This document shows positions 14,269 through 53,982 of a stretch of 64,000 nt of DNA, one piece after another. Origin of the DNA: Stylophora pistillata (lineage: Eukaryota). Position numbers and translations under genes: made by a program. Location of the stretch: assembly GCF_002571385.2 (NCBI RefSeq), contig NW_019218091.1, positions 213,963 through 277,962 of the forward strand, in the 5' to 3' direction. Each line of letters starts with the position of its first letter. Positions within the stretch are counted from its first letter, which is position 1. Below the pieces are notes generated by a model. It was not told where the DNA came from and searched no databases. It saw only the letters and a program-made list of their open reading frames with translations.

Positions 14269-17200
14269 TTACAACTCATCGTTGAGGTGATAGTCATCCA
14301 CTCCAGCATCGTTGCTCACGCTATCGCTAAAGAGAGAACAAAAAGCATGAAGGTTAGCAACGGATGTTAATTATAAAGTCAGCCATCCATTCTACGCGGG
14401 GTTGCACGAGGATCGCATCGTGTAAGATTGACCATTTCATACGATTTTTTCAGGGAGACTCGCTGGCACTGTCATTTATTCCTAGTCAATCAGATGTAAA
14501 ATTTGCACCTTTAACTTCTCATAAGTGATGTGAAATTGACCTTTTTCCTGGTCGATTTGATAACTTCGGTTGTCAAGCGAAAAGCACGTTGGGGCGTTTG
14601 TTACGTAGAGGAAATCTAGGGACTCAAAACATATGTTCTTAGAGGGGGTCTTGATGGGTTGGCTTTTACGGCTAACGGTGGACGTTATTCCAGTGTTGTC
14701 GCCAAAAATGTTTTTTTGCGACGAACGGTTAAAATTTGTCAATTTTTATGTCCAGCGGTTAAATTTAAGGCTGTTTTACAGCTCTCGGTTGACCCCAATG
14801 AGACCTTCTTAAAACCGATAAGGGTTCATTGTGATTGGGTTCCTTTAGATACAACTCACGTTTCACAGTTATTTCATAAAATAATACAACTTGTTTGGGT
14901 AGAATCTTTGATTTATAATATTTAGGTATTGAATTAGGTTCCCGGCCCTCCTTGTCGAAAACATCATAGACAAGACGCTTTATTCTCAAAGTACCTCAAT
15001 GCACATAGGACAAGAGTGCGAAAGGGCATTGGATAACTACCATGCGAACGACCAGCCATCCGGGGTTTAATACTTCTCATCGCTAACTATTATGAAAACT
15101 GGGATGAGTTGTGAGTGTGTGAGGGCCACCGACCCCTGTGCAGACGTCTCAGTTCCAGTTTCTTACTCTTCCAGACTGTTACTTCAATTATGAATGATGT
15201 TGGGTGATGAAATACATGTCTTACCTACGGGCTGGGATATTGCATCTGTTTGTTGTGAACACCTCGAGGTCCACTTCTGGGAGCTTTTCACAGGGAACAC
15301 GTACTTTTGACTGTATAAATCCAAACCTCGGTACAGAAGGGATGTCCATGTTGTCACAGATAATCTTGGAAATCCTGATTTTTCTGATTTCGCGAAGTTG
15401 GCATCGTGTAAATGCTGTTCTATCGGTGTTAAGGGTTTCATTTGGTGCGTTTTCATGCCAAAAACGATCTCCCAGTCGAAGGCGTTGGAACCCGTTTGCT
15501 ATTAGACACTGCGCGGTTGGCCCCAAGAGTCCTCCGCTGACCATATCGGGTTCCAACATTGCTGTCAACGGCAAAATAGTAAACATTATCAGAGACAGCG
15601 GCGTAGTGTAGCGCAGCTCTTACTTTCCTAGCCTTTGGATTTTCATTGTCTTTCTAGAGTGTAGAAATTGTGACTGAGAATCGAGAAAAGCGACAGGATA
15701 ACCACACCCCTTCCCTTGACACGATAAGTAGGGTCAATGCTTTGGAAATGCACTTGCTCTGTTCTCCGGCCTGTCGCCCCTCCCCTTTCAAACTGTTCTA
15801 CTGATAGTTTGTAATTGAAATTCAGAGACCAACAATATGAGGGTGGGGGGGGCTGAAAGTACCCCCCAACAAATGTGTCTGGGAGTGTAGCTATCTAAAA
15901 AAGTTATACACTATATTTAGTCTAAATTTTTGAGTAGAAGGCTCACCAGTGAGTTTGCTTTAGTATACTGCCGCCGCTTTCGATGGCTAACATTTAAATA
16001 GCTGAAACCCATACAGATTAATCACCCAGGTTAACCAGTTGCTTTCCAGCCTATAAGTGAATTTCTTGTCTGACTCATTGTTCTGCAATGGGCAAGTGAA
16101 AATCGAATGCTCGCGAACGAAACGTGAGCATTAATGTCGCACCGATAAATTCGTTCAAGGTCTACCATTGCTAAAGTTAGAACTAGGTAGCCGAGGTTAT
16201 TTGCTTTTTTACTTTGAATTCTCCTGGCTTGCGATATTTTTCCGTGTTTTGATTGGCCGTGGTGTGTTGGTTATAGCTTTCCACTACATTCAATATTAAA
16301 GCGCTCTCTTAGTAGCACAAACCTACCTCCGGTAAAAACATCGATGTCTTCAACGTGTTTGTACACTTTTTTTAAGTTTTGTACGTCCTTGGGATCGAAG
16401 CCAGCTTTCAAAAGGTCGCCGAAACTGTTTACCTTAGGTTGAATGTTGCACAAATCGAGGTTACGGTAAACTGTGTAGCCGGCAACACCACGTTCACGAC
16501 CTCTGTTGTTGTTGAGGGCTATGAGATCAGACGTATCGCCCGCACCTCGCCTGAGCTGTTCTTGCACCGCACTGGAAAAACGCCTACAATGAGAAAAGAA
16601 ACATCAGAGAATGTCTTTACACAAGACGGAAGAAAGTTAGCAAAGCGAAAGCCAAAGAGGAAGTTAATGGCCCGTATATTCATACTGCAGAGGCCCCTGT
16701 AGCTTCGTTTCGTTATAAGCTGGGAAGCTGCCACAAAGTTCTCAGAACATGGAGCCACGACTACATCGCACAGTGAAATGAAAGTGACACTATGGTGAAC
16801 TCGCTGATGTACTCCACAGAATTTAATTAGAATTAACGTGATTGTACTAAGAGCCAATGATTCTGTGATTCCAAGAAACGGAACTGAGCCGTTATCCCCG
16901 TATAAGTCCTTCCAAATTGATACGCCATATTTAGCTATACGTCCCCGTCTTTAAGAAGATACATGCTCTCCCTAGACCCCTAAGGCCGTGCTAATTCAAC
17001 GGGATTTGCCCAGCGAATCCCTACCGTACTAGTTCCTATGTGTCGCATTACCCCGAGTAAAAAGGAGCGAAATTGGAACGACGGACGATATGCGCACTTT
17101 GGCCTTGGACTTTGACCAAAACTAATCTACTTCCTCTATTGATTGGATGGCGTAATTGTCGCGAGGATGGAAAAATTATCCTCACTTAAAGTAAGATCTT

Positions 17201-20200
17201 GCTCTACCAACACGGGGCACTGACAGAACCACGTCAGGCTTCAGGGAGAGAGGATGGTCTTTTTGATTCACCTTATGTTCTCAGGGGTTAGGTGGAATTG
17301 TCATATTTTTCTTTACAAGGGTCTTGGGCCTAACTGGAGAAGATCATTTAAAATGCAAGGCGTAGCTCCGGAGGGTCGATAAATTACAGCTTTTGCCAAA
17401 TTCTGCTTTGAACGGGATTTTGTCCTATCAAACTTACCTTAAGGGTCTAATGTTACCCAATTAGAGTGCTTTTCGATTGAGTGTTAAAATACCAAAACCA
17501 AAGTAACCAAAGCAGCTAATCAGAACGAAAGAAAACATCTCTAGGAGCCAATGAGAACTCGAAATGAAATCTAGCGTGAGAAACGACCCGTGACTAAGTC
17601 ATGACTGGTGTTTGTTTTCATTCTGATTTGCTTGGAAGGCAATGCGAATTTTCTGGATCAACCACATAGCGAACTGAGGCAAAATCAAAGCAATCCAAGA
17701 TTATTTTATGACAGCCAATCAAAAATTTCCCAGCACTTTTCTTTAGTCAGTTAGCTCTCTGTAAGTTTCACTCACCCATCAACTTTTGCAGCAGGGTCTT
17801 TCATCAGGCCTCTAAAAATAGAATTAAGTCCTCCGTTACACAGTTGATAAAGGAAAGTTGGATCGCCAAACGTCTTTACTGGGATGTCGGGGAACTCTGC
17901 CTTTGAATTTTTGCCACAATTGTGTTCAAAGCCATCTTGAGTAAAACGTCTGAACTCTTCTTGAACCAAACTGTGGCCAAAGCGGTATGCAGCCGTTGAG
18001 AAGACCTGGGTTATTTGGGGGTGAACTTCTGGGTCATAGCCTTCAAAATAATTTGTCCCTCTTTCCAGAATCAGGTCAAAGTCTCTCCTCTAAAAACACA
18101 ACGAGAAACAAAGTGAGACAAAAAGAGACAAAGAGATCCTTTAATTTGATTTAATATAACTTCTGGTGTAAATGGAGTATTAATATAACTTCGGGTGTAA
18201 ATGGAGTATTAAATCCCACTATTAACCGGAATGAGTGAGAATGCGTGCAATAAGTATGCGCCCTAGTCAAAGTGGGGTTAAAAGTCAGGCTTTAGTGAAG
18301 CAAAGCTTCTTATGGTTCCGCGTTCTACCTAAAAACACTGCAGCAATCCGAGAATAAATCGCGCTGAGCACAAAGCTGCCTTATCTCTTAATTACAGCAT
18401 TACTGTAGCGCTACCAAATGAAGTATTCTCCTTACCGTCCTTGTGCTCAAAATTAAGGGCAGAAATTCAGCGTATGTGATGCGTTGCAGGTACGCACCAA
18501 TGATTCTCCTTGTTTCTTGGTAAATTCGCTCTGGGCCCCATAAAGTCTTTTTACCGAAGAAAGTTGCGATTCGATTGTGCTCACGTATTAGCAGAGTATG
18601 AACTGACATGAGACCTGCGACAAAAAAGGTTGAAAAATATGAAGAAATAAATCAGCACATTCTTAAAAACTGACTACTTTTCAGTGTTTTTAATATATAT
18701 ATATATATATAAGGCTACAAGGGGTTTAAAGCCAATAAGAACTCCGAGAAATTGAAATTTTGCGTCTTAATTGTGCCAGTAAACTTAACAGTAATTACTC
18801 CCTTTCAAATTAATTTTTTTCACTAGTTGGATGATTAAAAACCAGCTCTTTTCTGCGCATGAGTGACTTAAGTCGCAACTGGTTTAGCATTATTTGTGGA
18901 GGGGGGGGGGGCATTTTCCATCCAGATCAAGCGCAAAGCATAGTGATTTATAACCAATGGCAATCCCTCGTTTCTTTTCACATTTAAATGAAAATTGTTC
19001 CATTTATAAGACTTTGGGAACCCGTATACATTTATTAGATATGAATTATTTGCTGGGTTGTAATCAAACATCTTCTAGACCTATCTAAGGACTACCCGCG
19101 GGAGACTCCAATTCTAAAACGATAGGGTTAGGGTTATGGTTTTCTCAAAAAAAACGTTGATTGAATCCCCGTACGGGGACCCAATCTGGGGACCCAATCT
19201 GGGTATGGCTAGAGTTTTATTCGTTCCTTCAAAGATGGCATTTCATTTGCAGCCTTAAACGAGAGTTTTCTCTTCTTCTTCATTCTAGACCCAGGCTCCT
19301 CGCCTCTGATAAACTGTTGTGTGCTCTTACCTTGGTTTTCGTTTACGCGCTCGTCTCCTGCCAAAAAGCAAGGTGTATTGTCATCCAATGACGGGCAAAA
19401 CGTGCCGGGTTGAGCTGCTGGTAGAAAGTCCCCGAGGGGGCAGCCCTGTACGGGTTTCATAATTTTCATTAACCCATCTGGGGCCCTGAGCAGCGCCTCT
19501 TCCTCCTCGCTTGAGCCGTAAACATTGGATGCATCGATATAGGCTGTTATGACGTTGCTGTGTCCTCGTGGAGCCAGTCTGCATAACTTCTCTGGTTTGT
19601 GAGGTGCGTCTCGCTCCATTTCAATCTCATGGATATCCCGATCCAGAAAGATTCTGTCACCCTCTGGAATTTCAATGTTGATACACTCGGGGTCTTCGGT
19701 TGGAGGTTCACAGTTAATACCCGGAAACTCTGCCAGCGTGACGTCATGATCCATAAACTGTCCCCAGTTCATCGACAAGTGGGTGAGCAATTGGGAATCA
19801 GGATTGGTTCTGTCTGCGTTACTTCCGTGAACTTCGAAACTCACTTCCCTCGGGTTCGGTAATTCTTCTCCCTCCTTTGTTGTGCGAAGTGACGAGACGC
19901 AGTCTCCGTAAGCATTGGGCACCAAGCGTAGAAATTGATCACCCGCTGACCCACGTCCAGGATTTTTTAAATTGTTGCATGTTCCGTCGGCTGTTCGGAA
20001 ACGAGCGTTTTCATTGCACGTTATGTTGTCATCATGGGATTCGTCTTTTTCAAATATATCAAAAATTCTCAGTTTGCATTCTTTTAATCGCTCCTCACTG
20101 TGAAGAGATTAAGGGGAAGCAACTTTAGATCATTTAGGTCGTGGTATTTTGAACAAATAGTAGAATGTAGAATTTCTGCTCTCGATCCATATGCGTCATA

Positions 20201-20811
20201 GTTGATTCTGGCCCCGCCCTCGTCAACTCCCTTTCACACGATAGAAATCAGAAGCTTATAAAATTCTATTTGTTAAACATGAAATTCTTATTGAAGGCAG
20301 TTCATAACTTTTTTCCTTACCCACTCGAAGTAACTCTGAGTGCTGTCAGAATTCCTTGATCCTCACAAAGTTTTTCTATAACACAAATAGTGCACTGTTC
20401 ACTTTGTTTTGCTTCAAGCCACACTTTGCCGGGCTGGAGAGATTTTTTCCCATGCTGTAATGCTTGGTAGAATTTACGTAAGGCAAGTTTCTGCCTTTTT
20501 TCTTTTTTCTGCAGTTTGCTCGCTCCAAATTTTTGTATGGCTTCTAGCAAGCATGTTTTCTGTAGAAGTACAGCTTTTGTTTCAATTTGCCTCCTCACTG
20601 CCTGGTCGTCTCGCTTTTTCAGTTGTTGTTCTCGTTTTTTGTCTATACCCCTTACGCTCAACTCGTCTAACTTCGTCATCTCATCAGTCATGTCCTCCAG
20701 TGTTTCCTCTTCCTTGTTGGACGGGTATGGGTCATCAATAATGTAAGAAGATGTCATCCCCAAAGCGAGGATCAATAAAAAGACCAATCCACCGTGGATA
20801 CGGCCCAACAT
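14269..20811 (-). CDS. Secreted animal heme peroxidase (peroxidase-cyclooxygenase superfamily), paralog A, 800 aa
   Basis: Exons 20811-20321, 20097-19331, 18614-18436, 18089-17776, 16583-16327, 15561-15225, 14326-14269 (TAA); 2403 nt in frame. Signal peptide MLGRIHGGLVFLLILALG. Motifs FRTADGTCNN, WGQFMDHD, TAYIDASNVYG, GDERVNE, REHNR, AAYRFGHS, GDRFW. Confidence 0.93.
17460..17730. mobile_element. MITE of the TAGAG(C/T)G...AAAACCAAAGTAA family; remnants at 16210-16312, 32540-32780, 49510-49730, 49900-50036
   Basis: Repeated within the window in both orientations, with shared CCAATGAGAACTC / CTGATTGGC motifs. Confidence 0.55.
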
Positions 20812-22655
20812 GTTGACTAAAGTCAAAAGGAAAAAGGCACAGTATTAGGTTAGGTAAGACAGTTGAGCGCTTTAAACAATTTCATCGATAAAAGCTTTGC
20901 CACACTTTCTCCTCAAGAAAAAAGAAAAGCCCCTTGCAGGTCTTGGGTGTGAGACCATGTGAGTAATAAAACGGTCGTGATGCGAGACAATGGCAAAGAA
21001 AAAAAATTAAGAAGATTCACAATATTAGAGTAGTCATTAAAAAAAAAAAAAAAATTAGAAGTTCGACAGTTCTTAAGACATTTGCATGATGGAAGATAAA
21101 ACTTTGTTCTATCCTCTTTGTTTGAACTTTGTTCTATGGAAGATAAAACTTTGTTCTATCCTCCCTAACAATTCTTGCTATTTTATCAAAAGGAAGCTAA
21201 CCCTTAATTTTCGCCTTTGAACCTCTACTTACGTTTTTTATTCGATTCATGACCCTTCAAGGGAATCTAATTACCGTGTTGTGATAATCAGAAACGCTAA
21301 TGAAAGGGAAAGCTAGAATTGGCTACTTTAGCGATCAAATTATCCGATGGCGGCTATTTTGGATCATGTGACCAATGAGGTCTCCCTAGAAAATAGTATG
21401 ATTTAGCAACGAGCATTTTCACTTTTCCGAAAGGGGGTGGGGAGAGTGGAAACTTTTTCCGGTTCTCTTTTTTTTTTTCTGACAAAAGTAGCATCGAATG
21501 AGAAAAATAAAAATTACTGTATAGAGGTGTGCGCGGATGCGAGAACAATGCATGTGTACGTTTGACTTCGAATGACCATTTTTTTGAAGTTGTGTTTTGT
21601 TGTCATTATCGCTTGGCAGTCACTTGCTCAAGCATAACGACTATACTTTTTTTCCTGTTTGAGTGATATGCATTTTTTGGGCGCACAATGCCTAATGAAA
21701 ATACCTAGCGCATGAGACGTGATCTCTAAAGTGCACGGAATTCGTGCTCTGCTTTGCTCACTCAACATGCCGGAGGTAGTTACTATCCTAGAAAACGAAA
21801 ATGGTCGTGCTTTGAAAAACCCACAACCGAATTTGATCGACTCTCATCTTTGTCGAGGCCTTTAAGAGGGATTTAACATTTTATCTACTTTTAAGTTTCA
21901 GTAAGTTTTTCTTCGCTTTTTTAAAAGGGATCTCATGGAAATTGTTTCGATTGCTCTTCCTTACTAGAGTCATCTAACAGAAATCGTATGTGAGGGCGAT
22001 GTGTTGAAAATTGACTTCGGGGATGTTAAACAAATTCTCAGAAAACGATGCAGTGATAAATTATACGAATGTAAATTTGGGCTTAAAAATCGTAAGACAA
22101 AAGACTTGGGTATAAGGTTACCAAGAACTACACTCATGAATAACAAAAGCTTTCACAATGCTTACATTACTTTTGGAATTCCACTGAAAAAAAGCACAAA
22201 ACGGAATTTTAAGGGTAGCGGACAGTCAGAGGCAAACAAAATGCATTGAGTCAATGTTGGTTGGGATGAAGTTAGATTTGGCTGGCGTATTTGGTAAAAA
22301 TATAGGTGATACTCTCAATATGTGCTCATAAAAGCTGAAACCCGACAAGTCCAAAATGATTTTACCGCCGTAAGGTCAGCTAATACAAATTGGAAAAGTT
22401 TGAAAGATGTCCAAGAAGTGCCATAAATGCAACTTTTAAAAGCCATCAAGACTTTTACGCTCGATGAGCAAATATGAAATCTCTTCGGCGTCCACTAACA
22501 GATTACAACCAACTAATTTTGTTTTTGTGTGTATGTTCATAGTTAGAACTAAAATAGTGGTACAGCTTTTGAACCGAACGCATTGGAAAATACTTAAGGA
22601 AGAGTGCAATTCATCTCAATAAATTATAGGAAAATCCAACATGAAACTTAATTAC

Positions 22656-22755
22656 CTCTAATAATCCCTGTTTCTTCTGCTCAAAAGTCAGCTGCTTCTG
22701 GTAGAACTCCCTGTTTCTGACTTAAATCCCACTGTTTTAAACGGCTCATTTTATA
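22656..22755 (-). promoter_or_regulatory. Probable TATA box and non-coding first exon of peroxidase A
   Basis: TATAAAA (minus strand) at 22755-22749 and donor AGAG|GTAATT at 22655. The ATG exon begins 5 nt after an acceptor (TTTAG|TCAACATG), which implies an upstream exon. Confidence 0.55.
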
Positions 22756-37109: not shown

Positions 37110-40100
37110 GATCAAGGCCACCAGCGCTTGAAATGTCACTTAGGTCATGACTCTCCAAAAATTAGAGCAACTCTTTGCAAATTTGTGACTGACACGGTAA
37201 TTTAAAAGAAATAGTCAAAAAATTATAGCGGAAAATCTGCATAAGAACACATCTGGACAACTCATTGAAAGTGCTTCGAGGAATTATCAATGAAATGTTT
37301 TAGCAACAAACGCCGAAGACATCTTCGCATGCTCCGACGTACGACTTTGGCAATCGTCGTTGCAGATTTAAACTCGTCGTTACATCTATGGCCTGTGAAA
37401 GCGAAAATATGGAGAGTTTTCATATTTTCCGACAGGAAACCATCGATGGTACTTACGGTGATATGACCTGACCAAGTATATCGTGGAAGGAAGGCTTCAT
37501 GTGTGGCTATAACGAAGGTGTTAATGGCGGCGTTCTCCAATTGAAGTAAGCAAAACTTTGTTGCTAAATCCCATGTAGCTGACAAAATTATTAATTGCCG
37601 CGAGGACAAGGGTCTATGGTAACTGGTAACGAAGGTAAAGAAATTTTGCATGCCAATTAATTGCAGTGTAAGCTTTTAAAACGTTTAGACGGTTTCAAGA
37701 ATTGAAAGTCGATTTGCATGTGTTTTATTGAAATGCTTAGTAAAAGAATTTTCGTATAAGGCCATTCTTCTCTATTGCATATACTTTTTCGTTAATATAT
37801 GCACGTTTTTTATTCTGCCTAGAAGTTCTCAATGGTCGCACCTTAAAGCTTAGGATACATGGAAAAATGTTCTAAACGTAAATGTGAAATGTTCTGCAAG
37901 CATAAGTTAGGTTTCATTTATTATAATCTTGAACTTTTATGTCTTTCCGTGTAATAAATATGCATGCGGACCTTATGACACTTGCACGGTTTAACATTTT
38001 CTACTATCAAGATTACTTTGGCAATCCGAAGTCCAAAAAGATGTTTACCAAAATTTATTCTCGAGGCATGTATAATTCCGTTAGTCGTTGGTTTGTTTTA
38101 AAGGTCCATTCTGATTTCCGCGTTCATGGGTTGAAAAAAACGCAGTCGTAATGTTATCTAAATTAAGACAAAATAGCGATACTAAACTCTGAAGTCGTAG
38201 AAAGGTTATCAGCGAAATACCATCGACATCAAGGTTTTCGTCGGGAAAATCTTTTGTCTATCTTCTTCCGCTGTAGTCAACAGACCAACTACATCAATAA
38301 ACATTTTACAAATTCTTTTCTAGAATTCTCGAGCTTTTATCGGCCATTCACAACCCATCGACTTCATTTTCCGCGTGTTTCAAGTTATAAATCACAATTG
38401 TTCTCTCAGTTTGGTTTGAACAATAGATATGGGCGACTGTTCCTTACTATGTGAGCTACTATATTTTGGCAACTGCCTTGATATTTGACTGAGCTGCAAT
38501 ACGAAAAAATCAATGGTTTCCTCCTTAACAGCTAAGTATCGAAAGTAAATCAAATGCAAACAAACAAATAAACTTCTCGTTCTGTTTCTGATCTCGAAAA
38601 ATGCTAAGGTTTAGCTTAGCCTGTTTTTAAAACCAGTTTCTTTTTTATACTTGTAAATAAAGCCAAAAGTCGATGCTCTGATAATTCATTGGCAAAGATC
38701 TTTCACTGAGGAAGTATTATCCGGTTCATTCTGATAACGGATTATCGGTCTGACATAAGGCCTTGCAAGTCCCTAAGAAAGTTGGCACCGTTTTTTTAGT
38801 GCTGCATGATTGAGTTAGTAAAAGCCAATTCAATCTTGGTCATTTAAACATAGTCATTGCCGGTTTGGTTCACACTTGACTATTCTTTTTAACGCTATGA
38901 TCATCTCAAATAACCTTAAAAAGGCAATTTACCAGTAATTACGATCACGTCTTTAATTTGAGAACAACTGATTCTCATCGAATGAAAACGACCACGATAT
39001 CGCTTAATCTTATCTCGTCTGGAAACTATTCTGAAACCCTTGGAATAATTTCATCTGTTTATTATGAGGCGAGAGCGATGCTTTTAAACCAAAGTTGTAA
39101 AGACTTTTTGATGCTCACAGACCTTAAAGTTAATAAAAAATGTACGAAATATTGATGAAGCTATTGATACTGAGGACTAAAGCACACAATCCATTCTTAC
39201 CTTCAATTCAGTTGGTTCTTCGAAATAGAACAACCAAACAGCTCTGACTTTTCCGGCTTAAAACCTTTCGGTCTTATAGCTCGAAACAGGAACTTTACCA
39301 GTTCATTGTGTCTTTTGTTGCGATTATTTTGAATGCAATTTGAATAAATATTTTCCCAAAACAATAGTTTTTTTTATTGATCTATTCTTTAGACTGGGAA
39401 AATACTTGATTTATATCACAGTATATTTTTAGAAAAGGTTGCTCTTTAGAAGGGTTGTTGTTAAAACGATTGCATACTGCCAAGTAAATTTCACTTCTAA
39501 CATTAGTTTAGCAATCTGAAATCCCAAAAGATGTTGACTTCAATTTATTCTAGGGTCATAAAAACTCTATTTACGCTTTAATGTAGCTCTAATTCAATAG
39601 TTTTTTTTACTTTAGAAGGTAGGTGTGTTCCAACAAGGAACTCGCTGTTTTTGTTGTTTTTTTTTTTTTACGTCAACACTATTTTCCGCTTTTATAAGCT
39701 TAAAAAAAAAACGCGGCGGTAATGTTAGGTCAAGTAAAACAATGAAATAAAGTTGAAGAAAGGTAGTCAGAGAAATATCAACAAGTACCATGGAGATCAG
39801 ATTTTTGTCAAGAGGCCGTTAAAGTCCAGAAAACTTTTTTTTTCCTTTACTTCTTCCTCTTTCATCAGACAAACCAAACTAAATTGGATTTTGTAGAATT
39901 CTCGCGCGCCCATATTGATCATTTCGTTTTCCGTATGTGTGTTCAGTGATACTGAGATTAAAACTGAACAGAATTTGAAGTGCTTTAGATCATATTCAAG
40001 TGAGTTTCGCGCAATATAGGAATATAGGTAAGAGAGTTATTATTATCATGTCATAGACCACATATATGGTACGAACAAGGAAGTGGGACATGAGCTGTGG

Positions 40101-43100
40101 GTGACATTTCCTAAGGTGTGTAAGCTTGTTTGGCGACTGCGTCTTGACCTTGGGCTCAACCACAATACGGAAGAACGCAATGGGTTTGTTATGAGCAGCG
40201 ATATATTGCAAAAAGGAAAAAAATCAATACAAACTTCAAACGCAAGCCCTGATCTCAAAAGGTTATCTTTACGTCAGAGTGCATTCAAAGCAAGTTTCTT
40301 TATAATACTCGTAATAGATGCAGAGTGTCATTGCCCTAATATATCATTGGCAAAGATGGCTTCATCGAGTGAGCTGTATTCAAATCATATCATAATTTAT
40401 CAAGCTTTTGATCAGACAAAAGACCTCCTTAGTAGGTATGAAAAGGGTGACTCGTACGTCAGCACTGTGGTAACATAACTGCATGATCGATCGATGAAAA
40501 ATAGTCTTGTTTTGTTTGCGTTTACGTGTTAATGTTCATGTTAACGCTGCGCTCATCCCCAGGCAGAGAAGGATAATTAATATCCATTGAATACGGTCGG
40601 GTCTCCATGTAAAAGCCGAACAACTTATTATTTTCGAAAGGAAAGGAACAAAATGTACCTTAAATTCATCTCGTAATTTTTCTTGCTGAGTTTTGCTCGG
40701 GGTTGTCTTCCAACAAGAAACTTGCTGATATTTTGTTTTGTTTTCTTTTTAACATCAATTCCAACGACCCGCGTTCAGAGTTTAGAAATAAATGCAGTGG
40801 TGATACTAGGCTTTTTAGGTAAAACAAAATTCGATGCTCAACTCTCAAGAGAATGTAATATAAGGTTTGAAGAAAGGCAATCAGAGAAAAAAATAGCAAA
40901 TAACGTGGAGATCAGGTTTTTGCATAAAAAAAAAGACAAAAATCTTACAATCTTCAGTTCGAACTCGTAAATTGTTGGGTTAAACTCAGTCAGTCTTTTT
41001 AAATCAGACGAAAGGGCTCGTAAGTCGTTACGAAAAGCGGGACTAACAAGTTATATGGCACCATATAACTTGTTAGTTCCGCAGTTATGGCACCATAACT
41101 GCACGATCGATTGAAGAAAGCGAAATTTTAAGAAGAATAAAATCTTTCTTGTTTGAACGTAGCATCTAGGCATTTATCAGTGAGTTTAAATTTTCATTTT
41201 AGCCTTCCGATCGTCACTAGTATCCTTAAAAGGGCTAACAAATGCAGTGATTGTGGTTCGGTTTTCATATGAAGAGAGTGAACTCTTCCCGATACGTAAA
41301 AAGGAACAAAATATTCGGCTTAATCTGACCTCAGCAGGAACTTATTCGAAAATGTTACTGGTCTATTTTGATACTCAAAGACGAAGCGTTTCTCTGACTT
41401 AAAATTTGATTAAAATGTTCAAAATATTGGTGTAATCATGGGTATTAACAAATAATTTACAAAGTTCACTCTACCTTTAAGACGGTTTGATTCTTCGCAA
41501 TGAAACTACTAAACAGCTCTAGCTTTTCTGGCTTAAAAGCCCTCACTTTATACCCTCAAACAGGAACTCTGAGGGGCCGTTGTGTCTCTTTATTTTGGTA
41601 ATTTGAAACGCAATTAGTCTAATTGATTTTCTAAAACAATAGCTACTGATCTATTTGTCGACTCTTAAACACGTAAAATGATAATAATTGCTTTTTGTGC
41701 TTTAAAAAAAAAGGCAGTTCGTCAAAAATATTTACAAAAAGTTACGCATTAGCAGAGTCGGAAGCAGTATTATGGTAGAATTTGTCAAGCGTTGTTAAAG
41801 AGAATTTTTCAATTTGGTTTTCTTTTTTTCATTGATTGTAATGGTCGCAAATGATCTTTTTTTTTTTTTGATGATATTACTCAGACGAGCAATACGACGT
41901 TAAACGTTGACCTGCCCAGTTTGCCGTCAATCTCCTTGCAGGTTGAGGCGATAGAATGGAGAGACTTACACTCTGATTCTCATAATTCTAAATGATGAAC
42001 TCAGTTACAATTAAATGATAAGCTCAGTCAAGACTTCTAGGCCTTGTAGAATAGGGTCATAGATAGGATCGATGGAATAATGATTTCGTGTTCCAAAACA
42101 GAAATACTAGATCAAACTTTGTAAAAGACACTTGTAAGCTGAAGAGTCTGCTATGGTTCTCCACACCCTTTGTTTCGTTGACTTCTCCGGCTATGTTCAA
42201 GCTTTCCAGAAAGCAAAGCTGTTTTCCTTTTACTTTTTCCGCTATCGTCAAACAAACGAAAAAGCCTCACCATGGCTATCTATGGCTTGACAAGAAGGCT
42301 TTCTTTAGCTTTTGTCAGTGTAGCTGTCAATAAATCTCTATTTCATTTTCTACCAGCGCAATCAAGAATATTAATGTTTGAACAAGCTGTCAAATAATCT
42401 GATAACACTCATAGAAAATGATAGCAGCATTCGTTTTTCATCAAATAAACGCGTCATAAGCGTTTTGCGCAAACAACCAGGGACTTCGTTTAAGGAAAAT
42501 TGTGGTCGACATAGAAAAAAACGGCTCCAGGATACTACAATTTCTTACAGATGTAAACCACGGTTCATTGAAAGATTGCCTTACGAAATCTTTTACGCAC
42601 TTAAGTAAACTCTAGCATCAAAAACTATAGAAACGAGTGCATCCTTAAAAAAATTAATCTGATTAAACTGATTACCTAACACAAAAGAGATGATTTTGTA
42701 AACCTTCAAGGTAAACCGATTCTACGCATGATCATTCGATTTCTTGATGTTCCATAAGAGCTGGAAGGAAAGCCCTATAAGGTAATACCAAATGAACATC
42801 AAAAAATGATTTATGATGAACCTTTTAGAAGTTAGTTGATGCTTTAGTTGCTAAATAGCAGTGATTTAAGTGTTGCAGGTCGTAACTGAGTTGTTTCGCG
42901 CAAAACATTAAAATCAATTTATGTTTTCATGAGATTAAAAAAAAAAAAAAAAGAGCGCAAATACATGTTAGCTCCTCGTCAAATCGTCTGGTTGATTAGT
43001 TCTATGAATGAATTGTTAGGAATCATGTTTTAGATTTGACAGATAATACCAAACGAACATCAAAAAATTATTTATGACGAGCCTTTTAGGAATTTATGGA

Positions 43101-43572
43101 CACTTTACGTTGCTAATTAGCAGTAATTTGAGTGTTGCAGGTCGTTAGTTGTTTGCGTAAAACGTAAAGAATCGTCAATTCCAGTTTCCTGCGTTCAGAT
43201 TTAAAAATAAACGCTGGTTAGGTGAAAGAAAATTCGACGCTCAACTCTCAAGAGAATGTAAGATAAGGTTTCAAGAAAAGTAATCAGAGAAATATAGATC
43301 AGCATTTTTCAAAGAGGCTGTTTTAGTCAGGAAAGCCTTTACTTTCCTTTACTTCTTCTGCTATCGTCAAGCAAACCAAACCAGTGGTTTTATGTATTAA
43401 TTAAACAAACTCTAATGTAGAATTCTTGTGCGCTATTCGGTCCGTTAAACCCATGAACTACATATCCTCTGAGATGTGTGTCTTCAGTTCTAGACAACGG
43501 ATGACGCTTGATGCGTTACGAACAATTGGTTGCCACAGCAGTCGTGGGTTTGTGTCTCTTTGGTGTGTTATG

Positions 43573-43905
43573 AAATGTGTATCATTGGGAAGAAGAGAAA
43601 AGAGTTATTAAATATAAGTTAAGTTAGGTAGGCTCATAACAGGAATACGTTCCACAAACACCAGAACAGGATACTCTCTATAATGATGTGCCCATGGTTT
43701 ATGAAACCTTTCAATACTTGGAATAACCAAAAAGTAGTTTCTTCACACAACATGAGTACTCCCTCAAGCAGAAAGGTGACAAGAATAGAGAAATATATCA
43801 ACAAGGGTGTATTATTTGATTTATTAACAAATTTCCCGAACCAACACCATGAGAAATGTACGGCAGACATTTAAGGATGTCAACTTGACAGTGCGTGGTT
43901 TACAG
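43573..43905 (-). pseudogene. Intron-only relic of a peroxidase paralog (homologous to coding intron 2 of B and C)
   Basis: Colinear with 34200-34487 plus 34590-34614 (B) and with about 51332-51625 (C), including non-MITE flanks. No exon remains. Confidence 0.65.
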
Positions 43906-46900
43906 GTATACACGGTAAAGCCTCGTCAAATCGTCTGGTTGATTAGTTTTATGAACGAATTAGTAGGAATCGTGTTTTAGAGTTGTTAGATAACACCAAA
44001 TGAACATCAAAAAACTATTTAAGACGAACCTTTTAGAAATTTATGGATACTTTACGTTGCTAATTAGCAGTGATTCGAGTATTGCAGGTCATTGGTTGTT
44101 TGCGCAAAACGTAAACATCAATTTAAGCGTTCATGAGATTAAAAGAAAACCAAAAAAAAAAAAAAAACGCAGATACACGGTAGCGCCTCGTCAAATCGTC
44201 TGGTTGATCAAGGAATTGGTAGGGATCGCGTTTAAGAATTGTTAGATAATGCCAAATGAACATCAAAAGAATGATTCATGATGAACCTTTTAGAGGTTTA
44301 TGGATGCTTTACGTTGCTAATTAGCAGGGATTTGAGTGTTGCAGGTCGTCAGTTGTTTGTGCAAAACGTAAAGAAATAGAAGATACTTAGCAGTGAACCC
44401 ATTCCGAAACCCTGAGAGAATTTTTCCGGTCTGTTTTGATGCTAGAGAACAATGCTTACAGACTTAAAGGTTTATAAGGCTAATAAAGAAGCGTTTGAAA
44501 CAGTCATTTAAATATTGGTATTCATAACTAACTGTGCTATTCTTACATTCAGACAGTCTAAATCTTCGCAAGAGAACTTCCAAACGGCTTCAACTTCACT
44601 GGTTTAAAACATTAGCAACTCTTAAGGGCCATTGTGGCTTTTAATGTGATAATTTTTTTCAGTCAAGTTATTTATACACGACTTTAGGTCACTTGCATAG
44701 CTTTATAGTTTTCTCTTCCAAGATTACTTTAGCAGTCTGAATTCCATAAGAAATTTACTAATTTCTATTTTCTAGGCATGAATACTATAGTAACATTATT
44801 TGGGGTTGATTTGGCTCAGTCTGAGTTTTGCTTGTGGTTTTCTTTCAACAAGAAACTTGCTGGTTTTTTGGTTTTTTTTCCTTTTAACGTCAACTTCAAC
44901 GCCTCGCGTTCAGAGTTTAGAAATAAATGCAATGGTGATGGGGTAAAACTAAACTCGATGGTCAACTCTCAAGAGAATGTAATATAAGGTTTGAAGAAAG
45001 GTGATCACAGAAAAAATAACGGATAACGCGGAGATCGGGTCCTTTTGTTTCCTTTACTCCTTCTACTTCCGGTATCGTCAAACAAATCAAACCAGTCGTT
45101 ATACGTATATATTAAACAAATTTTATCGTAGAATGCTCGTCCGCTAATTGTTCGATTTAACTCACCTACCTCAATCAAGTTGCAAAATAGCTGTGTGTGT
45201 CTCTATGGTCTGTTTCCTTCATTTAGCGACTGTCTTGAATAACTAAACTGGGCATTCGGAAATGCTATGAACTTTCTTTTTTTTGAACAGCGAAATATAT
45301 CCCCCCATTATAAAAAACAACCTATCAATCTTCAGTTGGAACTCGTAAACCGTTAGGTTAAATTCAGTTTTTTGTAAAACCCGATTCTTTTTTATATAAA
45401 ACGTGTCTGTTCTCTAATCGATCATCGGTAAAGACCTTTCCCATAGCGAGTAGTATTCAATGCATCTATAACAGGCTGTAGATCAGACGAAAGAGCTCGC
45501 AAGTCGCTACGAAAAGCGGGACTAACAAGTCCATAACTACAGGATCGATTGAAGAGAGCGATTTTTTAAGAATAAAGTCTTGTTTGATTAAACGTAGCAT
45601 CTAGGCGTTTATTGATGAGTTTAAATTTTCATTTTAGCCTTCCGATCGTCACTGATATCCTTAAAAGGGCTAACAAAATCGAGTGATTGTGGTTCCGTTT
45701 TCATATTAAGACAGTGGACTCTTCCCGATAGAAAAGGAACAAAATATTCAACTTAATCCGACCTCAACAGGAACTTATTCGAAAATGTTTCCGGTCTGTT
45801 TTGACGCTCAAAGACGAAGCGTTTCGCTGACTTAAAAGTTGATTAAAATGTTTAAAATAGTGGTGTAATTATTGGTGTTAATAACAAACTTACGAAGTGC
45901 GCTCTTACCTTTGATACGGTTTGATTCTTCGTAATGAAACTACCAAACAGCTCTAGCTTTTCTGGCTTGAAAGCCCTAATTTTATCCCCTCAAACAGGAA
46001 CTCCCAGGGGCCTTTGTGTCTCTCTATTTTGGTACTTTTAGATGCAATTAGTCTAATTGATTTTCTAAACAATGGTCATTTATTTATCGACTCTTAAACA
46101 GAGACACACAAAAAAATTGCTTTTTCTGCATTTACGAAAAAGGCAGTTCGTCTTCCGCGTCGGAAGCAGCACCATAATAGAATTTGTTAAACGTTGTTAA
46201 AGAGAATTTTAAATTCGCTTTCCCTTTTTTCATTGATTGTAATGGTGGCAGATGATCCATTTTTTTTTAATCATATAACTTAAACGAGCATTATGACGTT
46301 AGATGTTGACCTGCCTAATTTGCCGTCAATCTCCTTCCAGGTTGAGGCAAGAGAATGCAAAGACTTACACTCTGATTCTCATAATTTTAACTAACAATTT
46401 ATTGATAATCTAACGACTTCTATTGCATTGGAGAATAGGGTCATGGATACGATCGATGGACTAATGATTTCGTGTTGCAAACCAGAAATACGTGATTGAA
46501 CTTTGTAAAGACACCTTTAAGCTGAAGAGTCTGCTATGGCTCACCGCAGTGTTTCGTTGATTTTTCCCGCTATGTTCAAGCTTACCAGAAAGCAAAGCTT
46601 TTTTACTTTTACTTCTTCCGCTATCGCCAGACACACGCAAAAGCCTCACCATGGCTATGTTAAGCTTTTGTTCGTGTAGCTGTCGATAAATTTCTATTTC
46701 ATTTTCTACCAGCGCAGTCAAGAATATTACTGTCAAAACAAGCTAATAACCCTCATAGAAAATGACAGCAGCATTTCTTTTTCATCAAATAAACGCAGAT
46801 ATTATATGAAGCGTTTTTCGCAAACAACCAGGGACTTCCTTCTAGGAAAAGTGCGGTCGTATAAGAAATAAACCGCATCTCCCACCACACTAACTTTCTT

Positions 46901-47162
46901 CTAAATGTAACTGACCACGGTTTATTGAAAGATTGCCTTACGAAATCTTTTACGCACTTAAGTATACTCTAGAAATTGGACAAGGGTTTGAGAAAATCAC
47001 AAATTCTCCAGCATAAAAAACTATGGAAATGACTGCTTCCTAAAAAAATTAATCCGATCAAATGATCACCTAACACAAAAAGGATAATTTTGAAAAACTG
47101 ATTCTACGCATAATTGTTCGATTACTTGACGTTCCATAAGAGCTGGAAGGAGAGCCCTGTAA

Positions 47163-47887
47163 GCTAATACCAAATGAACATCAAAAAAATGATTCATAAT
47201 GAACCTTTTAAAAGTTTACGGATGCTATCCGTTTCTAAATAGCAGTGGTTTGGTGTTGCAGGTCGTTAGGTGTTTGTGTAAAACGTAAACATCAATTTAC
47301 GCGTCCATGAGATTAAAAGAAAACAAAAAACGCAGATACATGATAGCGCCTCGTTAAATCATCTGATTGATTAGTTCTATTCATGAATTGGCAGGAATCA
47401 TGTTTTAGAGCTGTAAAATAATACCAACTGAACGTCAAAATATTATTTATGATGAAACTTTTAGAAGTTTGTGGATGCTTTATGTTGCTAAGTAGCAGTG
47501 ATTTGAGTGTTGCAGGTCGTTAGTTGTTTGCGCAAAACGTAAACATCAATTTACGCGTTCATGAGATTAAAAGANAACAAAAAAAACGCAGATACACGGT
47601 AGCGCCTCGTCAAACCGTCTGGTTGATTAGTTTTATGAATGAATTGGTAGAAATCGTGTTTTAGAGTTGTTAGATAATACCAAATGTACATCAAAAATAT
47701 ATCTATGACGAACCTTTAGAAGTTTATGGATGTTTTACGTTGCTCATTAGCGGGGATTTGAGTGTTGCACGTCGTTGGTTGTTTGCGCAAAACGTAAACA
47801 TCAATTTACGCGTTAATGAGATTAAAAGAAAACAAAAAAAAAAAACGCAGATACAGGGCAGCGTCTCGTCAAATCGTCTGGTTGACT
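47163..47887. repeat. About 255-bp tandem repeat (about 3 units); more units at 42783-43168, 43905-44372, 63303-63550
   Basis: Marker GCCTCGTCAAATCGTCTGGTTGA-like at 47348, 47604 and 47863. Confidence 0.9.
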
Positions 47888-48482
47888 AACTGATGCTATG
47901 GTGTAGTGGTTAAGCCACTAAGAGAGCTGGGTCATAAAGCTGGTGAATTTAGACTCAGGGGCGTCTACTTGAAAAGTGATCAGCTGTGCATTTAGATGTT
48001 CATAGTCAATAACGTGACACTGATTGATGCCTCAGTGAAGTTTTTTGTATTGATATCTAAATAGAAATACGGCGAGCTTCCAAAATGATTGACCTAAATA
48101 GTTTTGTGTAATGAAACCTCTCTACATAAAAACTACGAGCAACAGCAACAATAACAACAGCTTAATGCCTCTCAGATCTACCAATGGCAAAATCTTTTAG
48201 GCTAAGACTGGTAAAAATAAGGGCACCATCCCCTGTGAGTTTGAAAACAGCAGAGTCAATTACAAAGAAGTGTTAAGTTTCGCAGACAGGCTTATCCGTG
48301 CACATTATCCTATTGCATTGCAAGAATTTTAATCAGTTTTCCTCAAACCACTCTCTACTTCCTGCGCAAATAAATTCAAAAATTATATACTAGTAGACTT
48401 AACCTAAACTGTTTTCTAACAAAGTACAAATCCTCGAATCGGAGCCAAGAAGCCAATGAATTATTTCATTTTCGTAGATGGA

Positions 48483-51400
48483 TTATTCAGTAAATTCTTC
48501 GTCAATTTCATCCTCTTGAGTGTCAATTTCGTCAGTTTCATCCTCTGGGGCGTCACTCTTGGCTCTTTCGGGAAATAAAATAGTTAAAAACAGTTAATCA
48601 TAGATCAGACGTAATTTAGATAAAATTGTTTTCAAACCAGTGATAGCTGTAAACATACCTTGTCCCACGACATCTGAAACCTGGTTTAAACACATTCAGG
48701 TCCATTTCGGGCAGCTTATAACATTCGACGAATATCTTTGACTGTTGCAATACCCTCCTGGGAATAGAAGGGATGTTCTCAGCATTGTCGCAGATTATCT
48801 TGGCCAATGTTACTCTTCTTATTTCTTGCAGTTGGCATTGCGTGAAAGCTGTTTTTGTCGTGTTTAGTATTCCGTTGGGCGCATTTTCATGCCAGAAGCG
48901 CTCACCCTCTCGTAGGCGTTTGAACTGCTCGGCTATTAGACATTGAAAGGTTTTCCCCAATACACCCCCCTCCGGATCTGCACGTTCCATCATTCCTGTA
49001 AGGAATCATAATAATAACAATCACTATAAACGCTAAATTAAGCCCCCACCCCCCTCCTCTAGTGCTTAATTGTTTTAGCTGTGTTAGCTGAACGATAAGT
49101 TTTAGTGCCGAGCGTGGTTTATATGGCTGTGTCCTCCAATGGGTATAATAAAGCGAATCCGATGTTATGATTGGCCACACGAATAAGCAAGGTTCGGGAT
49201 CACTCGCTTTGATCCCGCAAAAGGAAACAAAGAGCTTGTAGGTGGTTCACATTTGTAGTGTTTAGACATTTCGTTACTGTTATATAGAGTTATCTGTGCG
49301 CTAAGAATCATGGTACTGTAACATGGCGTGCTCGCCAGGTGTAGATTAAAGAAACCGTTGAGTTTATCTGCGCTTATCTGGGTATTAACAGGCCATCATT
49401 ACAACATTCCTCAAAAAAATATTGCAGCATTTTGGCACCAAGAAAGTAAAAGATTTGTCTCCAGACAGTTGATACCGAAAACAGTACTACAAAGTTACTG
49501 AAAAGCTTTATTTGAACGTCGACATTAATTCGAGATTGCTTTGGTTTGTATTTTCTTTGCTCTTTTATTGATCCAATCTCTTGGTAAGTAGCGTTTCCCG
49601 CGCTCCAGTCAGTTTGATCACCTACTTAGAGTTCTTATTGGCTCCTTGTGATATGCGCCTTTTTTCTCATTGGCAGGTGCGATTGTTTTGGTTTTGGTTT
49701 TACAACATTCCATCGAAATGCACTCTATATAGTAGAACAGGATTGCATTATTTTTCGATTTTCTTTGTGGCCGGTCAGGAAAAGTTGTGTCGCCCTCTTA
49801 ACTGACGAGATAAATAACTTAATCCAAATGTGACTTGATCACTTGCGTTTTCATTCACTTTAGTCAGTTTTCTTGCTTTCTCCCTCTCCCCCACTCCCTT
49901 ATGTGAGTTCTGATTGACTCCTTATGATAATTCTCTGAGTTCTGATTGGCTCCTTATGATAATTCCTTGAGCTCTGATTGGCTGTTGTGATTACTTTGCA
50001 CTTGGTTTCACGCACTCAATCGAAAATCAGTGTGTAGCGGCATTGCGCCTGTGCAGACATACCTCCAACAAAAAGATCGATGTCCTGGACAGACTGGTAC
50101 TGGGACCTCAAATTATTTATATCTTTTTTGCCAATGCCAGCATTTTCCAGATCTTCGAACTTGCCTACTTTTGGTGTAATTTTACAAAACTCGTTTCGAT
50201 ATGTCGTGTATGAAGGCACACCGCGTTCGCGTCCTCTTTGGATGTTGATGGCTATGAGGTCAGACAAGTCACCGGGGCCTCGAAACAGATTTTCTTGTAC
50301 AGACTTGGAAAAGAGCCTAGAGTGAGAATAAGGTCAACCGAAGGATCAATCGTATGAAAATCATTATCTTGTATTGAGTTACTGGTAATCCTACCCATAT
50401 GTGGGGATCTATAGAGATCGGATATTTTTAATTGCGGTATTAGTCGCTTTTTCGTTTTAACTCTTCCCTGAAACAAACCTGATCGGGGAAGATCTTTTTT
50501 TAACGAATATTCTAGCAAGGATTTTGTCTTTCTCGAGGGAAAAAGTTTAAATCAGATATATTTGGGTAAAATGATTTTTCACTCGATTTTGACGTTTAAT
50601 TAACTGTCTTGTTTATTTCCCAAAACCGCCGACCCTCTTTCACCTAATAACTGCTCTCCCACTCTATCTCCTTCGTATCCATTGGCTCGCTTTTTCTAAA
50701 CAAGAGATATGTAAAACTATCTTCTACATAACTTTTATCTCTCACTCACCCATCAACTTTGGCTGCGGGACTCTTCACTAAGCCTCTAAAGATGGAATCG
50801 ACACCACCACTACACTTGTCATAAAGGTAGGTTGGATTACCAAAGTCCAGTACGGGGATGGAAGGATACTCTGACTTAGAATCACTGCTGCATTTGTGTT
50901 CAAAGCCGTCTTGAGTAAAACGTAAAAATTCCTCTTGAACCAAACTATGGCCAAATCGGTAAGCAGCCGCAGAGAAGGCTTGGGACATCTGGGCATTGAC
51001 ATCGGGGTTGTAACCTTTGAAATACCTTCTTCCTTTCAGCAGAGAGAGATTATTTTCTCTGATCTACAAAATGAAGAAAAAAAAGTCAGTTTGAAACTAA
51101 GAAAAAAAAAAGAGAGAGATTTAGAAACTGTTACCTACCGTTTTGGGGCTAAGAAGCAATGGCAGATCTTCGTTGTATGTAATGAATTGTAATTCCGCCC
51201 CGACAATTCTCCTGGTCTCCTGGTAAATCTGCTCTGCTTCCCAATCTGTGTTTTTACCAAAAAAATCTGCTATTCGGTTGTGTTCCCGGACGAACAGAGT
51301 ATGAACTGACATGAGACCTGTTGTATCCATCAAATATATATCATTAGGTGGATGATGCAAGAGAGTTATTTGATAAAGGGTAAGATAGAAGGACTTATGC

Positions 51401-53982
51401 CGACAAACGCCCGCGTAGGATCCTTCCCACATTTCTCAGGGCATGGTTTTAGAACCCCTTCACCACTTGGAATTACCAAAAAGTAGTTTCTCCCCGCAAC
51501 ATGTGTACTTCGTAAAGCAAAAAGGTGACAAGAAGAAAGAATTATATCAACATGGGTGTATCATTTGATTTTTACTGACAAACTCCCAGAACTATCACCG
51601 TGAGAAGTGTATCGTAAACATTTAAAGAGTAATAGTGTTGAGATCTTGGGAATAAAAGGGTTAATCAGGGCGCATGTGCAATTTGATCTTTCCAGTCATG
51701 TCTTAATAGGGATGTCTGTGCACAAGCGTTGACAGGGTGTCAAGTTGACGATGTGTTATCTACATAATTATGTAGCAGTAACAAATTTTACAGTTTTATA
51801 TCAAATATTTGGTCTGAATACGCTATGGGCGTAGTTGCAAAAGATCGATAGACCACAGTCTAGTCTTTTTGTCTTGATCAAGAGTGAGAGGTGACCTCAC
51901 CTTGATTCTCGTTCACTCTTTCGTCTCCGGCATCGAAACAAGGTCTGTTAGGATCTCTTGATACGCACGGCACCTCAGTATCTGTTTCTGCTGGTAAAAG
52001 ATCCCCCAAAGGGCAGCCGTATAGAGGTTTCATAATTCTCATTCTCCCATCGGGGGCTCGAAGGTGTTCAGCCTCCTCATCGTCAGAGCCGTAAACGTTG
52101 GACGCGTCGATGAAAGCTGTTATCGTATTGGTGTGCTCTCTTGGTCCTGGTGAACACTCTGTTTTAAATTGATCGGGAGCATCTCGAATCACCTTGAAGA
52201 ATGAAACACCCCTCTTCCGGAAGACGTAATCATCGGACGGAACCTCAATGTTGAAACACTCTGGGTTAGTGGAGTTTGGGGCTTCACAGTTAATTTTTTG
52301 TTCTTCCGCCAGCGTTACGTCATGGTCCAGGAACTGACCCCAATTCATGGCCAAGTGTGTCAGCGTTGGAGAATCAGGGTTTTGGCGGTCTGCATTGAAG
52401 GCAAGGACGAAACGACTCACGTTTCTCGCGTTGGGTAACTTGCTTCCATTTAGTGCCTCACGAGGTGTCGAGACCTGATTTGCATAATCAGCAAGTTGTA
52501 GTCGTTTGAAGGGAGTAGGGGCTGCTCCAAATAAGGGTTGTCGCACATTATTGCAAGTTCCATGAATTGTTCTAAAACGGGCCTCCTCCTTAGACTGATT
52601 TCGACATTCCGCGTGCCGTAATTGTCGCGGTTGTAAACACTGAAGAACCTTTCTCCTGCAGATGGTTATTCTCTCCTCCCTGAAAAACAAAAAACCAAAT
52701 ATGAATTATTTAGTGGCAGAGTACCACTTGAAATTCAAACACCACAAGAACTTTGGAATGCGATTACTGAAATAAGAAACGCACTAGTAATTGTAAAGGA
52801 CAACTGAGGTATTAGCAAGACTGAAGTACCGTGGCTTGAATTGAATTATTCAGTATTGGCTTAACAATGTACGATGAAAAGAAAGGGTGAGCGTAAGTTT
52901 CAGAGTAAAATATCTTTTCGAGATAAATATTTCAGATTTACTTTTAACGAAAAGTTAAGGAATTAAGGTTAATCAGAAATCTTAAAACGGGCGTGAGTAA
53001 TTGAGAAAAATGTGTTTTCATAAAAGAAAAAGTTTACTTGATAACTTTCAAGGGTCCATGAATTGCAATTCCCTGGTTAGTGGTTACATTCATTAAATCC
53101 TTAAACCAGAGTAGCTTCAAACTATGTCTAGCTTTGAAGGTGTCATAAACTCCGTTAAGCGGGAACTCCCTAGCGACCATCGGCGGCAAATAGCCTCTAC
53201 GAACTCAGACCGAAATGGACTCCACTCAGTACTATTTCCTGCAAATAACCTTTTCAATGCAAAATAGTTTGGGGTGATTTCTTAAAAAGCAGAGCGTGCA
53301 CGAGGTTTTTTTTTTCGTGAAGGCACCCGCGAGGGTTTAACTTAATCTTTCTGAAAGTGTAAATTTTAGTAATTAACTTCGATTCAATGAGAAAAAAAAT
53401 TGTCTTTTTCGTCCAAAGTTGAAACGCAAAAGTTTGGAGTAACCTCAAGTATCAAAACTTAGCCTTAGGGCTGGCCGTTAACGCCTCTTTGTGTTCTCGT
53501 GCTGGAAACACTTACCCACTTGCAGTTATTTTTAAAAGGTGCAAAACATTTTTTTTCTCACAAATGTCTCGAATGGCACTAATGACACAAGCTTCGTCCT
53601 GTAAAGCCCTAAGCACTTTCGAGTCGTCCGCCTCTGATTTTTTACCATGTTGTAGTATCTGAAAGTTTTTTGTCGGACAAAATGTATATTCTGCCTTTCT
53701 CTGTTTTAGTAAGCTATCAGGTTTTTCGCTTTTGGCTTCAGCCATGGATTTGTTCGCCACGGCTTTGAATTCATCTTTTATTTGTTTGCAAACATCGGTC
53801 GGCTCGCTTTCTTGCACCTGTTCCATGTCCAGGTCATTCATTTCGGCAAGGTCATCCACCACGTCTGGGGTAGTGTGGGTGTCTCCTTCAAATCGGTCTT
53901 GGTTATTTAGAACAGAAGAGGATCCCTGCTCCAATCCCAGAACCAAGATAAGCAGTAAAGCACTGAGTAAGCGTTCTGCCAT
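48483..53982 (-). CDS. Secreted animal heme peroxidase, paralog C, 803 aa
   Basis: Exons 53982-53516, 52679-51901, 51317-51139, 51063-50750, 50316-50063, 48995-48659, 48564-48483 (TAA); 2412 nt in frame. Internal exon lengths identical to B (779/179/314/254/337). Motifs WGQFLDHD, GDERVNE, AAYRFGHS. Confidence 0.94.

Follow-up and report, generated by a model that had tools for sequence, protein, structure and literature searches.

The peroxidase-cyclooxygenase superfamily is defined by sequence motifs, and paralogs, frequently arranged in tandem, are common among its peroxinectins (PMC4420034). Three described groups are closest to the genes reported here, namely lactoperoxidase and myeloperoxidase (LPO and MPO, family 1), peroxidasin (family 2), and the peroxinectins of family 3, such as chorion peroxidases, MLT-7, DdPoxA and the squid halide peroxidase. 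Chloride is oxidised at reasonable rates only by MPO, which has a sulfonium link; bromide is oxidised by enzymes with two esters and no such link, among them LspPOX and peroxidasin (PMC5787809). Human peroxidasin (PXDN) is known to undergo C-terminal convertase processing, and its KDEL-tagged form was retained in the cell, with extracellular cross-linking abolished (PMC8533639), so a tag of the KDEL type is able to reroute a member of this superfamily. In corals, a peroxidasin homolog was reported in five copies in Stylophora pistillata versus one in A. digitifera (PMC5730576), and tandem clusters of heat-responsive 'peroxidasin' genes were reported in Porites australiensis (PMC8691061). Here we describe three stand-alone heme peroxidase genes, A, B and C, in a 64,000-nucleotide stretch of S. 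pistillata DNA (contig NW_019218091.1, positions 213,963 to 277,962; hereafter the window, in whose own coordinates all positions are given). Their catalytic core is ordinary, and within a well-known superfamily they belong to a branch specific to corals, whose members are often mislabelled peroxidasin. Expansions of coral 'peroxidasin' genes have already been published (PMC5730576, PMC8691061); the new point lies in the tails, where one class of paralogs carries a conserved, predicted retrieval tag for the endoplasmic reticulum (ER), the only feature that might surprise a specialist.

We consider the chances about even (a probability of roughly 0.5) that A, B and C are LPO-like bromide or iodide oxidases, of which A and B would be exported and C would work in the ER, a reading drawn from sequence and a structural model. 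The heme would be tied by two autocatalytic ester bonds (D94 and E242, MPO numbering) without a Met243 link, and compound I would oxidise bromide, iodide and thiocyanate and hardly chloride, with H2O2 as the oxidant for seawater bromide or iodide in the style of LPO. Bromide is the likeliest halide substrate in seawater, given the concentrations there. Once exported, A and B might supply HOBr or HOI to the surface or the matrix, which could serve antimicrobial defence; as a side role they might also halogenate or cross-link tyrosines of the matrix. The acidic tail of B may be removed at an RRKR site. Retrieval of C by the KDEL receptor would let it apply the same chemistry to cargo in the ER or early Golgi.

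The genes were modelled by manual splice-site reading on the six-frame translation of the window, which gave the following features.

48483..53982, minus strand: gene A, 803 aa, with a 97% identical full-length protein, P0004.
53982-53516, 52679-51901, 51317-51139, 51063-50750, 50316-50063, 48995-48659, 48564-48483, minus strand: exons of gene A (hand-built model).
48483..48564, minus strand: tail exon of gene A, the most acidic, with 14 D/E in the last 25 aa and no KDEL-like end.
31511..36682, minus strand: gene B, 788 aa, equal to P0001, 'peroxidase mlt-7-like [Stylophora pistillata]'.
36682-36234, 35544-34766, 34186-34008, 33909-33596, 33061-32808, 31997-31661, 31565-31511, minus strand: exons of gene B (hand-built model).
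31511..31671, minus strand: RRKR and acidic tail of gene B; the furin-type RRKR (aa 768-771) spans the exon 6/7 junction, and the tail exon is 31565-31511.
14269..20811, minus strand: gene C, 800 aa, 95.5% identical to P0007, with six introns joined in sequencing runs X3, X13 and X12.
20811-20321, 20097-19331, 18614-18436, 18089-17776, 16583-16327, 15561-15225, 14326-14269, minus strand: exons of gene C (hand-built model).
14272..14283, minus strand: C-terminal NDEL of gene C, a predicted KDEL-type ER-retrieval motif.

Each gene has seven coding exons, all introns are GT..AG with the same cumulative phases (2,1,0,2,1,2) in 3/3, and neither internal stops nor frameshifts were found in the full coding frames of A, B or C. 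An earlier note on this DNA had described three intact same-strand genes with identical intron phases, and the models bear this out; its end points, the ATG of A (53982) and the stop of C (14269), are exact. The B protein is identical to P0001 letter for letter, so at least one gene of the array has already been annotated. A and B are 75% identical, and C is 51-55% identical to them. The hydrophobic signal and the pro-domain are encoded by exon 1, the peroxidase domain PF03098 by exons 2-6, and a short acidic tail by exon 7. The N-terminal hydrophobic stretch reaches a 19-residue Kyte-Doolittle maximum of 1.6-2.0 in the three proteins (hydropathy only, without a signal-peptide predictor); past the N-terminus the value never exceeds 1.21, and no transmembrane segment was found in A, B or C. 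PF03098 was the sole Pfam family in exons 2-6 of B and likewise in P0001, no family matched exon 1 of A, B or C, and the LRR, Ig and vWC domains that characterise peroxidasin were not found in the gene models or by Pfam. Gene A was considered as a decaying copy, given an odd EDLP and a divergent stretch in exon 1, and this was rejected because P0004 and P0003 also have EDLP and the frame is open.

Gene C has the sequence attributes of a KDEL-type ER-resident protein: a hydrophobic N-terminus, no transmembrane segment, a KDEL-like end and a spliced tail junction. P0005 and P0006, which are 75-77% identical to C, and P0007 also end in NDEL, making 4/4 C-class sequences, and a DEL or DEF ending was found in 0/416 homologs outside the clade, among which an E[L/F] ending occurred in two, both KEL. 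The 19-residue tail exon of C is identical to both P0005 and P0006 at 15/19 positions, compared with 456/578 and 447/578 (79% and 77%) in the catalytic domain and 117/168 and 113/168 (70% and 67%) in the pro-domain; the tail is conserved at the level of the catalytic domain and above that of the pro-domain. The tail of B matches A-type relatives at 7-12/18 positions versus 474-481/582 (81-83%) in the catalytic domain. In a HeLa reporter, Asn at -4 was as effective as K/R/H for ER localisation (PMC2140024). Because it ends in NDEL, C is probably not secreted, so the earlier description of all three proteins as secreted likely holds for A and B and probably fails for C. The RRKR of B corresponds to RRRR in P0004, the junction that it spans was spliced in 3/4 runs, and we infer that B may be cleaved there. 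The earlier suggestion that the paralogs are routed to different compartments thus gains support from the NDEL of C and the RRKR of B, the locations being predicted. Neither a natural KDEL-tailed animal heme peroxidase nor a study of this clade was found in searches of open-licence papers.

The catalytic residues, numbered as in MPO from an alignment to MPO and 240-340 homologous domains, are complete. A, B and C all have Q91, D94, H95, D96, T168/D172/S174, R239, E242, R333, H336, N421 and R424, and keep the superfamily motifs GQxxDHD, RxxE, the proximal His with its Asn, and the Ca-binding loop. Columns were counted over 16 clade rows, near-duplicates among them, and 324 non-clade domains. 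Position 243 is Asn in 16/16 clade rows, and the Met243 of the sulfonium link is absent. Retention of the catalytic and Ca-binding residues and Asn at 243 had been read correctly before; as a distinguishing trait Asn243 was rejected, since 110/324 non-clade domains also have it. Tyr332 was likewise rejected as a special trait (Tyr in 113/324 other homologs, Phe in the paralog P0002), as was the RERG motif with its Arg428, present in 59/324 others. In P0010, P0011, P0108 and P0109, which are Acropora/Montipora-type orthologs, RGRERG is changed to Tyr forms, for example RGYERG. The presence of both ester residues and the absence of Met243, read together with PMC5787809, make LPO-like chemistry a fair inference, and this residue pattern fits the earlier proposal of bromide, iodide and thiocyanate rather than chloride oxidation. 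More particular to the clade, the column of MPO F366 is Gly in 15/16 clade rows and Phe in 250/324 others, with a one-residue alignment ambiguity that leaves the replaced Phe as F365 or F366, and the F407 column is variable, with Phe in 6/16 clade rows versus 287/324 others. F99, F366 and F407 are listed among the active-site residues of MPO (PMC8615004), and the exchange of one Phe of the F365/F366 pair for Gly suggests that the pocket is more open to substrates.

Structural comparison likewise places these proteins with MPO and LPO. An AlphaFold2 (AF2) model of B from 77 sequences reached a predicted local distance difference test score (pLDDT) of 89.4 and a predicted template-modelling score (pTM) of 0.89, and its best Foldseek match was MPO (7oih, E 9.5e-41, target TM 0.89), with LPO at 0.87. 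Target TM ranged over 0.85-0.90 for MPO/LPO, 0.67-0.68 for alpha-dioxygenase (alpha-DOX) and 0.61-0.64 for cyclooxygenase (COX), so that MPO and LPO are far closer, and GQxxDHD is kept. A second model, with P0007 first among 16 sequences, was poor (pLDDT 54.4) and was not used. The window genes therefore share with LPO and MPO the fold, the order of signal, pro-region and single catalytic domain, the distal and proximal residues, the Ca site and two potential heme esters. They differ in having only about 30% identity, no Met243, Gly in the F366 column, an additional exon for an acidic tail, which in C ends in NDEL, and a pro-domain without a detectable sequence match. The pro-domain of B was modelled confidently as helical; it gave no match at E<0.1 among the 416 outside homologs and no alignment to the proMPO propeptide, only two representatives in a 50%-identity library matched it, and ESM Atlas matches of 0.80-0.84 were taken as leads only.

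To place the genes within the superfamily, trees were built with FastTree on 91 domains and with IQ-TREE on 68 domains, whose rows were hand-picked from the matches and left out vertebrate enzymes. Both trees agree in placing the window genes within a stony-coral clade of single-domain peroxidases, supported by a Shimodaira-Hasegawa-like approximate likelihood ratio test (SH-aLRT) value of 97.5. Actinia P0120 is the sister of this clade (SH-aLRT 100), and a larger clade (SH-aLRT 98.6) takes in a second coral stand-alone group, P0248, P0262 and P0299. True peroxidasins, cnidarian and bilaterian, form their own clade (SH-aLRT 100) that excludes the window genes, and 'short peroxidasins' were not identifiable among the sampled rows. 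The phylogeny that the earlier note had proposed as a check thus sets the genes apart from peroxidasins, in line with its view that they have neither peroxidasin domains nor a transmembrane segment. With peroxidasin they share the PF03098 catalytic domain and, likely, bromide chemistry. The P0248, P0262 and P0299 clade is also labelled 'peroxidasin', and its Stylophora member has a C-type lectin domain. On these trees, at least two coral clades under the 'peroxidasin' label are not peroxidasins. With family 3 the window genes share a stand-alone architecture, frequent tandem paralogs (PMC4420034) and 35-45% catalytic-domain identity; they differ in lacking the KGD/RGD integrin-binding motif (0/13 clade proteins checked) and in forming their own clade with P0120 as sister. 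Deep nodes are weak (SH-aLRT 52-79), which bears on any grouping with arthropod and nematode peroxinectins.

The published coral expansions concern the same or related corals and tandem same-strand genes, and the at least four Stylophora copies counted here (A, B, C and P0002) fit the count reported for this species. The reported genes (PMC5730576, PMC8691061) may be those of the array or, equally, those of the P0248/P0262/P0299 clade; the excerpts of these two papers do not discuss tails or ER signals. An epidermal in situ hybridisation marker 'Peroxidasin' in Stylophora (PMC8162421) and a calicoblast 'peroxidasin' gene, XP_022794431.1 (PMC8913943), could not be tied to the window genes, and brief mentions of peroxidasin in PMC13581030, PMC12960093, PMC7655939 and PMC9316358 were not tied to them either.

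Comparisons within the array place A and B in collinear duplicated units that include introns and flanks, which are 67-84% identical by blastn.

31015..58751, no strand: collinear duplication of about 17 kb, with the B unit at 31.0-41.0 kb and the A unit at 47.9-58.8 kb (blastn offsets 16.9-17.8 kb).

Between the A and B catalytic domains the synonymous divergence (dS) is about 0.3 and the ratio of nonsynonymous to synonymous divergence (dN/dS) is 0.35, whereas dS between C and A or B is 1.6-2.2, near saturation. By this measure C is an old paralog, much older than the A/B split, and the lineage expansion suggested earlier applies to A and B and not to C. The catalytic domain is under purifying selection (dN/dS 0.14-0.35). 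Close relatives were found in Desmophyllum, Porites, Montipora and Acropora. P0002, also from Stylophora, is a fourth paralog; it shares about 79% identity with A and B, and its model ends without the C-terminal part. Because P0002 has no full match to any window gene and its contig is equal in size to that of P0001, the array probably extends beyond the window. Units of about 250 bp form a tandem family (42780-47885) that recurs at 63296-63553, upstream of both B and A. A run of about 867 N (58755-59621), an adjacent inverted repeat (59964-60545, 93%) and a nearby 1.07-kb duplication (56302-57368 versus 60548-61616, 95%) mean that the assembly may be uncertain around 58755-59621. Convergent with gene C is a 362-codon open frame on the plus strand (11360-12445) with a PTB/PID domain (PF00640, E 3e-15).

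Transcript support was taken from read contigs of four runs over 14250-34200, a stretch outside which gene A lies; X3 and X13 are RNA on record, and X12 is guessed to be RNA. All six coding introns of C and the tail intron of B (31565/31661) were joined in 3/4 runs (X3, X13 and X12), and in X15 none of the joints of the coding or 5' untranslated region (UTR) introns of C, nor the B tail joint, was seen.

20816..22656, minus strand: 5' UTR intron of gene C, joined in X3, X13 and X12, with a non-coding exon upstream of 22656.

An AG acceptor-like site lies 5 nt before the ATG in A and B, at the same distance as in C. Gene A is supported by P0004, an uninterrupted full-length open reading frame, 97% identical, on a 2.6-kb contig. 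Joints over the inner introns of B had non-canonical ends, probably from paralog transcripts, and were excluded from the counts. Contig depth is unfit for ranking expression, and the higher depth of C was not used; short high-copy repeats at 25500-25600, 29020-29200, 30640-30900 and 33370-33500 had very high contig depth in 4/4 runs.

Several other accounts of the array have to be weighed against LPO-like halide oxidation with C in the ER. Like MLT-7, chorion peroxidase and ovoperoxidase, the enzymes could serve mainly to cross-link tyrosines or phenols by one-electron chemistry in proteins of mucus or of a cuticle-like or skeletal matrix, in which case C would act on cargo before secretion. 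The lost pocket aromatics at F366 and F407 could admit bulky substrates, the acidic tails are similar to skeletal matrix proteins, and Stylophora 'peroxidasin' genes, not shown to be these genes, are reported in epidermis and calicoblasts (PMC8162421, PMC8913943). This account remains a tentative one, however, as in neither tree are the window genes orthologous to the cross-linkers of nematodes or arthropods, and Q91, which binds halide, is retained together with both ester residues. As for location, a matter partly independent of activity, all three proteins may be secreted, with the NDEL of C an accident of its acidic tail and the tails tuning charge or surface binding. Tails rich in D and E make DE frequent, and the motif is confined to the C class, other clade members having acidic tails without it. 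The conservation of the C tail while those of A and B drift, and the invariance of NDEL in the C class against its absence from outside homologs, tell against such an accident, and we hold secretion of all three to be possible and not expected.

A mainly antioxidant role seems unlikely; the enzymes would then remove H2O2 by a peroxidase or catalase-like cycle, C doing so within the ER of cells that are stressed or bear symbionts. Oxidative folding in the ER yields H2O2, which would suit such a location. The heat response of coral 'peroxidasin' genes (PMC8691061, PMC9316358) points the same way, but no link between the responding genes and this clade could be made. An intact halogenation site speaks for the production of oxidants, and catalases and glutathione transferases are abundant in coral proteomes. 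Fatty-acid oxygenases of the COX or alpha-DOX type, using a Tyr ahead of the proximal His, would agree with Tyr332 (MPO numbering) in all three proteins, with the RERG motif, and with the ER-luminal location of COX enzymes. Given that Tyr332 and Arg428 recur in ordinary homologs at the frequencies above, that P0002 has Phe, and that fold and sequence are far nearer to MPO/LPO than to COX or alpha-DOX, such an activity is highly improbable.

A number of points also weigh directly against halide oxidation divided between the surface and the ER. Peroxidases to which cross-linking or phenol oxidation is ascribed have the same residue set, which therefore does not dictate the substrate, and the clade rows behind the column counts include near-duplicates. 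No assay of any enzyme from this clade was found in the open-licence literature, and tissue data could not be tied to these genes. NDEL is carried by only three near relatives of C and has been assayed in mammalian cells only, where one of three human receptors did not bind it (PMC2140024). In orthologs from Acropora and Montipora the C-terminus is an acidic stretch closed by Trp, so NDEL is not clade-wide, and P0107 is without an acidic tail. Gene A of the window has only a reduced form of the RRKR-type site, RGTR, and P0003 lacks the site. Contigs retaining the last intron of C (14327-15224) occur in X3, X13 and X12; they may be merely unspliced RNA, and a transcript keeping this intron would yield a form without NDEL.

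Papers on coral stress, immunity and calcification often explain 'peroxidasin' genes by mammalian collagen IV chemistry, and such readings may be misplaced, since at least two coral clades so labelled are not peroxidasins. If C is not retained in the ER, there is nothing unusual about the array as a tandem family of invertebrate peroxidases. If C is retained, it would make it possible to test cleanly whether a halogenating peroxidase of an animal acts within the secretory pathway, and whether brominated or iodinated products come from the coral host. An extended version, which we regard as doubtful, is that stony corals split a haloperoxidase family, in which secreted A/B-type enzymes would brominate at the surface and soluble, NDEL-tagged C-type enzymes resident in the ER would brominate, iodinate or cross-link its secretory cargo before export. 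If that were true, the cargo would be mucus or skeletal matrix proteins, and the family would represent ER-based protein halogenation and a host-encoded source of coral organohalogens.

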